Assembly: GCA_965263185.1 (NCBI GenBank) | Contig: OZ253588.1 | Location: 1,665,454-1,729,453 of the forward strand | Reading direction: 5' to 3' | Length of the DNA: 64,000 nt | Source: Dehalococcoidia bacterium | GTDB taxonomy: Bacteria > Chloroflexota > Dehalococcoidia > Lucifugimonadales > UBA2985 | Part shown: in pieces, positions 59,227 through 60,389 of the stretch | How the letters are laid out: each line of letters starts with the position of its first letter | Numbering within the stretch: the first letter of the stretch is position 1 | Position numbers and translations under genes: made by a program | Notes under the pieces: model-generated | The model's input: the letters and a program-made list of their open reading frames with translations, nothing else | Told to the model about the DNA's origin: nothing | Databases searched by the model: none

Positions 59227-59499
59227 CTAACCGCTCTCCATGGTGACCTCCTTGTCTCCCCCGCAGGCGGCAAAGACCATTGTTGTCAACTTTTGACGGA
59301 GACAGGCGTCGGCGTCCTTGATGGCCTGCGCCTTGCGGTGAAACCCCGTCTCCGCTTCCAAGACAATGCGGAGGCCGTCCACATCCGCCACGACGTCCAT
59401 CTTCCTGGTCCCGCCCCTCTGCTCGTAGTCCGCCGGTATCCCGCGCTCCTGAAGGAGCTTTGCCAGGGCGCGGTTCTGGAAGTCCTCTTGCTTATTCAT
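59227..59499 (-). CDS. 90-aa PD-(D/E)xK/HSDR_N-like protein, copy B
   Basis: 4 substitutions in 90 aa relative to copy A. ATG 59499 overlaps the stop of the TIR-like gene (ATGAATAA). Confidence 0.45.
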   Translation of the reverse strand: MNKQEDFQNRALAKLLQERGIPADYEQRGGTRKMDVVADVDGLRIVLEAETGFHRKAQAIKDADACLRQKLTTMVFAACGGDKEVTMESG

Positions 59500-60310
59500 A
59501 AGCACGATTGGCGTCTATGTCGAGCCCTGCGCTCTTCATTTCTCCGATTAGTTTCGTCTTCCAACCTCCGCCCTCATCTAGCGGAATATAGAGGACTCCT
59601 GAATAGTCTGAGGGTATCTCCAAGTCCTCCTTCATCAGGGCACGAACTTTGTCCCGGCCGAACTTCCCGACAAAGTATCCGAGCTCGAAAATCACGTTCT
59701 GCCTTGCGCGGGGTTTCAATTCATCAGCGTTGGGACCGCCTACGTCGTCCGGCGTGAGCAGCGCCACTACGAAATCTCCCCTGGCATTTTCCTCAAACTT
59801 CTCGATTACAGTGAGGCCACGGTCGGGCTGCTCCTCCAGAATCACCGGCTCAAGTCCTAGTTTCCGCAGAAAGCCCGCGACTGTATCCCTGGTACCGTGG
59901 TCCCTACCGTGAATCACGAACACACGGTTGGTGATAACTGGCTGCGGTACTTGCGGAGCTTCAGGAGTGGATGGCTCCTGAGGATCTTCCCAGTTCTCGT
60001 GTACATCACGGATCATTGACCTGAGTCTGGCGGAGGCTTTATCCAGACCTCTCGTGTAGGCTTCTTGATATTGGGCCATTAGGGTGCCATTCGCGATTGA
60101 AACTGTGGGAGTATAGTGTATGGCTTCAAAATCTTTAACGTATCTGGAGGTTTCACCAAAAGCGTTAATAATGGCTGTTTTGGTGTCGCTCCCCCATTCG
60201 GTAAACTCAGGTGGGTCAAACCTTAGCCGTTTCAACTCGGGTACGCCATCCAGTTGTCGTTGGAGGCGTCTTATTGCAGTCTCTTTAGTCGGTCTGGGCA
60301 TAGTGCTCAC
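59492..60310 (-). CDS. Protein with C-terminal TIR-like nucleotide-binding domain (Cap12/PycTIR-type) and unknown N-terminal domain
   Basis: [28 protein letters not shown].....IEKFEE......F.VALLTPDD.......[17 protein letters not shown]..V resembles the PF10137/COG4271 pattern. AT-richer than the flanks. Confidence 0.65.
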   Translation of the reverse strand: [272 protein letters not shown]

Positions 60311-60380
60311 TTTCAGGGCGCGATGTTAATAGAAGGCGGTAGTTTCAGGCTGGCCGCGCCTGACAAAGGCTGCAAACCCG

Positions 60381-60389
60381 ATTATAGCA
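60381..60389 (-). promoter_or_regulatory. Extended -10 element TGCTATAAT upstream of the TIR-like operon
   Basis: Perfect TGnTATAAT on the minus strand, about 70 nt upstream of the start codon. No good -35. Confidence 0.35.

Follow-up and report, generated by a model that had tools for sequence, protein, structure and literature searches.

A single-gene PDC-S35 TIR candidate next to a gutted methyltransferase-family gene in a Dehalococcoidia bacterium

Does a TIR-like gene whose stop codon overlaps the start of the next gene belong with the genes downstream of it, as part of a new defense system, or does it stand by itself? This question is raised by a 64,000-nucleotide (nt) stretch of DNA from a Dehalococcoidia bacterium (assembly GCA_965263185.1, contig OZ253588.1), which was analyzed at its full length and is called the window below. 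A preliminary description, made from the sequence alone, had taken the TIR-like gene and four open reading frames (ORFs) that follow it on the same strand (a mini nuclease of 90 amino acids (aa), a lipoprotein, a triple PH-domain protein, and an 80-aa ORF) as an undescribed five-gene defense module. The ORF listing bore out the 272-aa TIR-like ORF, the downstream ORFs, and a second copy of the downstream cassette. What these parts are turned out differently. We consider it likely that the locus holds one gene, intact and of the PDC-S35 family, that encodes a self-contained abortive-infection TIR NADase, and that the other four ORFs are not its partners.

The TIR-like gene lies at 59492..60301 on the minus strand. 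The longest ORF (59492-60310, minus strand) begins with a GTG at 60310 and encodes 272 aa; homologs start with MPRPTK, and the ATG at 60301, which gives a protein of 269 aa, is therefore probably the true start. When the protein was run against PADLOC-DB, the PDC-S35 model PDLC05005 matched it over its full length (E 2e-78; positions 3-262 of the 264 in the model aligned with residues 9-270). All five PDC-S35 hidden Markov models matched, the other four with E 1e-42 to 1e-64; the PADLOC models of the Cap12 and PycTIR effectors covered the TIR core only, at 35-47 bits. Judged by these profile matches, the gene belongs to an already catalogued single-gene candidate family, and the claim of an undescribed system had to be given up. 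The PDC set comprises the 145 one-gene and multigene "phage defence candidates" of Payne et al., which were nominated for their embedding in systems of three kinds (BREX, DISARM, and type I restriction-modification) and were presented as predictions, with PrrC cited as the model for back-up functions (bioRxiv 10.1101/2024.01.29.577857). We obtained more than 7000 matches to the family, typically ~268 aa long and starting MPRPTK, with a patchy distribution across phyla (Dehalococcoidia, Binatia, Nitrospirota, Gamma- and Alphaproteobacteria, Acidobacteriota, Spirochaetia, and others). Among plasmids, more than 1100 records carry a full-length or TIR-domain match, 16 of them near full length, and phages gave hardly any.

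The TIR-like assignment of the C-terminal part, also made in the preliminary description, was upheld by profile, fold, and motif. Pfam CAP12-PCTIR_TIR (PF10137) matched residues 129-245 (59576..59926, minus strand) on model positions 1-118 of 119, with E 2.2e-35 and 121.7 bits against a cut-off of 24.7. An AlphaFold2 model was built with 31 homologs as input (mean predicted local distance difference test score, pLDDT, 75.6) and shows an alpha/beta domain in this part. By Foldseek, the best matches in the PDB were the TIR-STING structures 9lmq and 7un8 (E 3e-5 to 9e-4; best probability 1.00), and the next solved-structure matches were the TIR domains of SPARTA and SARM1. A profile search of PDB sequences found only Cap12 (E 4.7e-10) and PycTIR (E 1.5e-5), and in it the R-x-NV-x-FE-x-G segment of our protein aligned with RDNVVFEFGLF of the Cap12 chains. 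This segment contains the putative catalytic residue Glu209 (59684-59686, minus strand). Glu209 is invariant in the 31 homologs, and we take it to be catalytic on the strength of published SfSTING work.

The first ~120 aa had been called unassignable, and indeed no Pfam match was found there. In the AlphaFold2 model this N-terminal head (residues ~9-106; 59993..60286, minus strand), which we propose as the sensor or regulatory part, is all helical with a pLDDT of 86-97; Foldseek found no PDB fold match that covers the head, and no STING or SAVED match. A Pro/Glu-rich flexible linker follows (residues ~107-126; 59933..59992, minus strand), of which residues 112-126 are disordered (pLDDT <50). 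We compared the gene with that of locus L081, from a strain-level relative. The core flanks of L081 agree with those in the window at 95-96% identity, the TIR gene at 83%. Synonymous divergence (dS) rose from 0.12 in codons 1-120 to 1.16 in the rest of the gene. The two halves of the gene likely recombine within the family, with a breakpoint between domain alleles in the linker. We also searched with the head alone (residues 4-118), which yielded 481 representative clusters, and took a census of domains on 95 clusters of at least 150 aa. The head was joined to a PF10137 TIR domain in 59 of these, to a DpnII-MboI restriction-nuclease domain in ten, to TIR_2 or TIR in five, and to Hypoth_Ymh and AbiJ_NTD4 in one each. 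The head is a modular domain, fused elsewhere to nuclease, other TIR, or Abi-type domains. A conserved head with swappable toxic domains is the usual layout of single-protein abortive-infection systems.

The gene also appears to have a promoter of its own. As the preliminary description had reported, a perfect extended -10 element, TGCTATAAT, lies at 60381..60389 on the minus strand, ~71 nt 5' of the GTG and ~80 nt 5' of the likely ATG. The element is unchanged in L081, in L082 (an assembly 99.6% identical to the window), and in the distant L001, even though the leader around it has diverged, and it is this invariance that points to a promoter. Within the 64-kb window TGNTATAAT occurs once, at the 60381-60389 site, with 0.35 occurrences expected window-wide. 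A consensus scan detected no -35 element matching the sigma-70 consensus 16-18 nt from TGCTATAAT and hence omitted the site. The gene and its leader are AT-richer than their surroundings, again as reported, with a G+C content of 0.52-0.55 across 59500-60500 and ~0.60 on either side. The ratio of nonsynonymous to synonymous divergence (dN/dS) of the TIR gene was 0.19 against L081 and 0.17 against L001; by these ratios the gene is under purifying selection. An Rfam scan of 53000-61500 gave no matches.

How might such a protein act? We infer an anti-phage function, an NADase activity, an oligomerization trigger, and a sensor role of the head. The TIR domain would act as an NAD+ glycohydrolase, silent as long as the protein has not oligomerized. 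The helical head would replace the cyclic-nucleotide sensor of Cap12 and PycTIR and would gate assembly on an infection cue, so that the gene could act alone, as an abortive-infection module expressed from its own conserved promoter.

If the TIR-like gene is complete by itself, what are the ORFs downstream? The 90-aa ORF (59227..59499, minus strand; full ORF 59227-59505) and the 80-aa ORF (57201..57443, minus strand) are both explained by locus L001, a Dehalococcoidia metagenome-assembled genome whose TIR protein is 68% identical to ours and which carries an intact 917-aa ORF at 10798-13551. The 90-aa ORF was 80% identical to residues 1-82 of this ORF, with homology over 59254-59499, and the 80-aa ORF was 79% identical to residues 840-917. 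We found no window counterpart of residues 83-839. Since the ends match at ~80% and the middle has no counterpart, the two small ORFs are, by sequence comparison, the 5' and 3' ends of one gutted gene of the N6-adenine methyltransferase family rather than a mini nuclease and a further component of a module. The central ~2.3 kb of the gene (~750 codons) has, by the same comparison, been replaced by a 1.8-kb segment with the lipoprotein and PH genes. The intact ORF of L001 carries the S-adenosylmethionine (SAM) motif DPACGTG (in DPACGTGTLL) and NPPF (in MNPPF), scores 24.4 bits with Pfam N6_Mtase against a cut-off of 20.4, and has weak MmeI_Mtase, MTase_II, PglX, and type IIG matches; no solved relative was found by sequence. 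SAM motif I and NPPF/Y thus have been lost from the window gene.

The overlap that seemed to couple the TIR-like gene to the 90-aa ORF has an older origin. The TIR stop and the next ATG, at 59499, do overlap as described, in ATGAATAA at 59492-59499. The junction reads ATGA in L001 and L081 and ATGAATAA in the window after a 1-nt change, and the overlap is, from this alignment of junctions, inherited from an ancestral TIR-methyltransferase junction. Ancestrally, then, the TIR gene would have overlapped the 917-aa methyltransferase-family gene, the middle of which was apparently swapped for the lipoprotein/PH pair in this lineage.

The 90-aa ORF exists as described, and its PD-(D/E)xK label was not confirmed. 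Neither it nor the 80-aa ORF matched Pfam, PADLOC, or NCBIfam. Its AlphaFold2 model was of low confidence (pLDDT 56.6), with an alpha-beta-beta-beta-alpha order and no significant PDB match, and its conserved residues are D35 and E48-A-E50, without the Lys of ExK. We found 57 homologs of this ORF, all short, many of them from 2-16x long-read assemblies. A recurrent breakpoint or insertion hot spot at codon ~82 was considered and rejected; most homologs continue in L001-type sequence and then run into a frameshift or stop. The FAACGGDKEVTMESG junction was seen in the window lineage only. At two other loci the 917-aa gene is essentially whole and in one frame (L089) or in frameshifted pieces (L090), and no TIR gene lies near either.

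The gutted gene is present again beyond a VapBC pair. This copy A (53868..56172, minus strand) is 92% identical to 57201-59499, copy B, over 2313 nt, and its parts, all on the minus strand, are a 5' remnant (55900-56172), a lipoprotein gene (55561-55851), a PH gene (54195-55586), and a 3' remnant (53868-54110). The homology between the copies has the ATG and the TGA of the gutted gene as its exact limits, which leaves the TIR gene outside the repeat. Copy A had been read as a degenerate paralog that lacks its TIR gene; it is instead a repeat that spans the gutted gene from ATG to stop. Identity between A and B is a mosaic. The 5' remnants agree at ~91%, the stretch from the junction through the lipoprotein gene into the start of the PH gene at 98-100%, and the 3' remnants at 77-92%. 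dS between the copies was 0.25 and 0.38 in the remnants versus 0.03 and 0.13 in the inserted genes, and we infer an insert younger than the ends of the gene. Two paralogous methyltransferase genes may have existed, with the gutted middle copied between them via recombination in the ends. In a test for a second paralog, the flanks of copy A showed no similarity to the flanks of stand-alone methyltransferase genes.

We also considered that copy A once had a TIR gene of its own. The idea was based on a 39-nt match between the upstream regions of the two copies and on a 185-nt stretch 98% identical to L081, and it is not supported, as the matching upstream stretch is a dispersed repeat resembling repetitive extragenic palindromic or miniature inverted-repeat transposable elements (REP/MITE-like). 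The full 185-nt copy of this element lies upstream of copy A, at 56241-56425, and is 98% identical to L081 1828-2012, upstream of the TIR gene there; the leader of the window TIR gene keeps 39 nt. Partial copies are located at 60488-60526, 8260-8379, 13896-13930, 1673-1705, and 36180-36259.

Next to which genes are relatives of the TIR-like gene found? From at least 579 loci that encode TIR relatives we took the best 80, with ±10 kb each, and clustered the neighbors. No universal partner gene was found across the 80 loci. At ~25 of them a type III Mod gene of ~1000 aa (Pfam N6_N4_Mtase; PADLOC MTase_III, E 6e-147) ends at the TIR start and a ResIII-type gene lies downstream, and at ~20 an MntA/HepT toxin-antitoxin pair comes directly after the TIR gene. 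An operon of type III Mod, PDC-S35 TIR, MntA/HepT, and type III Res was observed in L008, L010, L016, L021, L035, L043, L053, and others, at ~7000-14300. Its Mod and Res proteins are 60-85% identical across phyla, and the operon is conserved and horizontally spread. A literature search on COG4271, and on TIR-like proteins together with type III restriction, found nothing specific. Six of the 80 loci carry a homolog of the 917-aa gene a few kb or less from the TIR gene, convergent with it and abutting its stop in three of the six. Neither a methyltransferase nor a restriction neighbor was present at ~50 loci. Other neighbors include a DUF4172-Fic gene in L003 and L004 and, on small plasmids, a tyrosine recombinase/integrase gene that a ~295-aa TIR homolog overlaps by 4 nt (L091, B. 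pseudomallei plasmid NZ_CP073739, 5857-7697; L092, P. avellanae plasmid NZ_CP026567, 5854-7694). Roughly half of the 80 loci had none of the neighbors named here.

Several observations weigh against a gene that is intact, acts alone, and serves in defense. About a third of the relatives adjoin DNA methyltransferase or restriction genes, and the TIR stop overlaps the methyltransferase-family start in L001, in L081, and in the window; the TIR protein may normally depend on a methyltransferase or restriction partner, which is broken here. The dN/dS of the remnants between copies A and B was low (0.11 and 0.28), and some residual function of the remnant peptides is conceivable. The TIR-domain part of the AlphaFold2 model reached a pLDDT of 60-85, a moderate confidence. 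Defense function and NADase activity rest on homology, and our literature search found no paper or supplement that names or tests PDC-S35 specifically. Finally, the TIR gene is split in L082 into ORFs of 113 and 172 aa by an extra T at ~10008 (window ~60003; GATGTTACAC versus GATGTACAC), which is either an error of the 11x long-read assembly or a real frameshift, that is, decay within the population.

A rival explanation is a two-gene arrangement of the PrrC kind, which we judge unlikely. The TIR protein would be a back-up effector, silenced by the adjacent DNA-modification enzyme and fired when a phage inhibits that enzyme, and the window TIR, orphaned by the destruction of its partner, would be either inactive or freed from control. 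The shared overlap with the 917-aa gene fits this arrangement, as do the homologs of that gene within a few kb at six loci and the ~25 loci with a type III Mod before and a Res after the TIR gene, often with MntA/HepT between; the PDC set itself was defined by embedding, and its authors cite PrrC (bioRxiv 10.1101/2024.01.29.577857). However, most of the loci surveyed, ~50 of 80, have no methyltransferase or restriction neighbor; where there is a partner it varies, from Fic in L003 and L004 to the tyrosine recombinase on plasmids and AHJR-like and RusA genes in L081; and the 917-aa gene also occurs without TIR in L089 and L090. Moreover, the TIR gene is still under purifying selection despite its gutted partner, and embedding may merely reflect loci that tolerate insertions. 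We kept the self-contained PDC-S35 gene as the preferred explanation.

Is the gene a defense gene at all? Its product could instead bind or process nucleotides in housekeeping or plasmid maintenance, or the gene could be a decaying passenger. Public annotation of the protein says only "nucleotide-binding protein". When it was used as a query against a viral structure library, nothing reached E 1e-3, and the weak viral fold matches were to nucleoside deoxyribosyltransferases, proteins of the same fold class. The overlap with an integrase gene on small plasmids and the split gene of L082 lean the same way. We nevertheless find a role outside defense very improbable. The family is spread patchily across phyla, and the TIR gene is far less similar to its L081 counterpart than the chromosomal flanks are; recombination has acted at the level of domains inside the gene; relatives occur repeatedly inside type III restriction-modification operons; the head is held in common with restriction-nuclease and Abi-type domains; and the Cap12-type catalytic motif is conserved.

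The two genes within the gutted gene belong to other company. In copy B, the small lipoprotein-like gene (58888..59178, minus strand) encodes 96 aa, with a signal peptide and a Cys motif read from the sequence, and matched no family in Pfam, PADLOC, or NCBIfam. The PH-domain gene (57528..58913, minus strand) encodes 461 aa, with a likely start near 58838; its homologs cover the query from about residue 26. Where the preliminary description had a triple PH domain, Pfam gives a single bPH_3 match (PF14470, E 5.5e-9). The PH family is small, with 43 matches, and the sole match with a source name is from Chloroflexota. Relatives of the PH gene were found in four other contexts, none of which has TIR or methyltransferase ends: next to genes for CoxG and enoyl-CoA hydratase; adjoining a DDE transposase; as three paralogs between ilvC and leuA in L085 (1781-7999), with a duplicated 61-aa KARI_C fragment between them; and, 91% identical, near a type I restriction system in L086, with partial copies of the lipoprotein gene adjoining. 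In L085 the PH genes are flanked by pieces of a host gene, as in the window. Between copies A and B, the PH gene has two hypervariable patches, 58200-58350 and 57760-57860, of 69-74% identity, one with a 3-nt gap; outside them it is 90-100% identical, and its overall dN/dS is 0.66.

The five-gene module, in which lipoprotein and PH protein sense envelope or infection cues and the TIR-like protein and mini nuclease are the effectors, retains in its favor five same-strand ORFs downstream of a conserved promoter-like element, the first two overlapping, an arrangement repeated in the near-identical L082, and the hypervariable PH-gene patches, yet it is hardly credible: a search with the four downstream proteins found a lipoprotein or PH gene at none of the 80 TIR loci, the arrangement recurs in L082 alone, L081 and L001 (with the same flanks or TIR-VapBC synteny) carry other genes in that place, PH relatives live without TIR in four other contexts, the "nuclease" and 80-aa ORF are the ends of a gene and not genes themselves, the overlap goes back to the junction of TIR and methyltransferase, and none of the four downstream proteins matched PADLOC or NCBIfam. 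Co-occurrence in other genomes was a check proposed in the preliminary description itself, and its outcome contradicts the module.

The wider surroundings do not make a defense island, as had been supposed. Between copies A and B lie VapB (56529-56762, plus strand; MazE_antitoxin, E 1.3e-8) and VapC (56759-57166, plus strand; PIN, E 3.5e-16; overlapping VapB by 4 nt), and on these domain matches 56529-57166 is identified as a VapBC toxin-antitoxin pair. In L001 and L081 the pair lies in the same place and direction with respect to the TIR gene. Near the TIR gene there are only VapBC and the wreck of the methyltransferase-family gene, and the nearest other strong PADLOC match that could be placed on an ORF is 26 kb off: an orphan or type II DNA methyltransferase at 32238-33158 (minus strand; MTase_II, E 1.7e-87), for which no restriction gene was identified. 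A PDC-S48 match in the window (E 1.6e-32) was not placed on an ORF. The neighbors in the 99.6%-identical assembly are housekeeping genes (CcmE, 2-oxoacid:ferredoxin oxidoreductase, ThiE, RNase HII). In L081, ccmE is followed by TIR, then by a 30-codon stub of the 90-aa ORF and, on the opposite strand, AHJR-like and RusA genes; VapCB, DinB_2, and thiE come next. L081 has extra genes compared with the window, and this stretch of the chromosome is therefore variable between strains. Bounded by ccmE and thiE, the variable region that houses the TIR gene is small and is no rich defense island. L081 also has an extra N6_N4_Mtase-HNH gene at 7971-9522, between the genes for RNase HII and a UbiE-type methyltransferase. 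Elsewhere in the window, the ORF at 36413-37768 (minus strand) contains 14.3 tandem copies of a 72-nt unit (36485-37517, 79% matches) and encodes a protein of 24-aa repeats; similar units repeat also at L086 4876-4957.

Overall, the supposed new five-gene system comes down to one catalogued candidate gene plus debris, and it should not be carried forward as new. What is gained is a concrete anatomy for PDC-S35, in which a flexible linker, also the likely recombination breakpoint, joins a helical head to a Cap12-type TIR domain with Glu209. The head, shared with restriction-nuclease, other TIR, and Abi-type domains, is a good candidate for a portable sensor. The placement of relatives between Mod and Res, often with MntA/HepT, and the overlap with the methyltransferase-family gene make a PrrC-like guard hypothesis testable. 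We speculate, as an unlikely extension, that the head is a common, exchangeable sensor of infection able to drive two kinds of effector, Cap12-type TIR NADases and DpnII/MboI-type nucleases, that members located at modification genes are guards, and that the window locus is an orphaned guard kept under selection. If this were true, guards would fire when a modification enzyme (type III Mod/Res, or the 917-aa methyltransferase) is inhibited or lost.

How does the gene compare with known systems? For Thoeris we found no sign: the PADLOC matches of the protein include neither ThsA nor ThsB, and its TIR subfamily is that of Cap12 and Pycsar, not ThsB. Cap12/TIR-STING and PycTIR are closer, sharing with our protein the PF10137 subfamily, the fold (9lmq, 7un8), and the R-x-NV-x-FE-x-G segment. 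TIR domains of CAP12 and Pycsar hydrolyze NAD+ upon oligomerization (PMC13142454), and by analogy the window protein likely does the same. However, it has no STING, SAVED, or cyclic nucleoside monophosphate-binding sensor and carries an unrelated helical head instead. The NCBIfam Cap12 equivalogs, with a cut-off of 450 bits, reached only 36.4 and 31.1, over the TIR core alone, and the PycTIR model covered residues 168-245 only, at 35 bits. Nor is there a CD-NTase or pyrimidine cyclase near the gene. The preliminary description had already remarked on the lack of a cyclic-nucleotide or Thoeris partner, and the NCBIfam results and the neighbors agree with it, as does the PADLOC scan of the window, in which no CD-NTase, cyclase, or ThsA/ThsB appeared among the best 25 of 74 families, down to about E 1e-23.

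For the gutted gene, the nearest comparison is with the type IIG/MmeI-like gamma-class N6-adenine methyltransferases, which the L001 gene resembles in its SAM motif I, its NPPF, and an N6_Mtase score above cut-off. It differs in that its family matches are weak, and the window keeps only the first 82 and last 78 codons. PrrC in the EcoprrI type I operon offers a likeness of arrangement, a suicide-type effector inside or adjoining a modification operon in the same orientation, as seen in type III Mod-TIR-Res at ~25 of the 80 loci and in the TIR/methyltransferase overlap of the window lineage. Here the chemistry is that of a TIR domain rather than an anticodon nuclease, most PDC-S35 members have no such neighbor, and any interaction with, or masking by, the modification enzyme is hypothetical. 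The closest comparison is PDC-S35 itself. The window gene differs from its definition in having no intact defense system around it, its only modification-type neighbor being gutted, and the embedding seen here is in type III systems, whereas the survey that named the candidates used BREX, DISARM, and type I. Still, the match to PDC-S35 runs the full length of the protein, over head, linker, and TIR domain, and the relatives are embedded in DNA-modification operons, as in the PDC definition.

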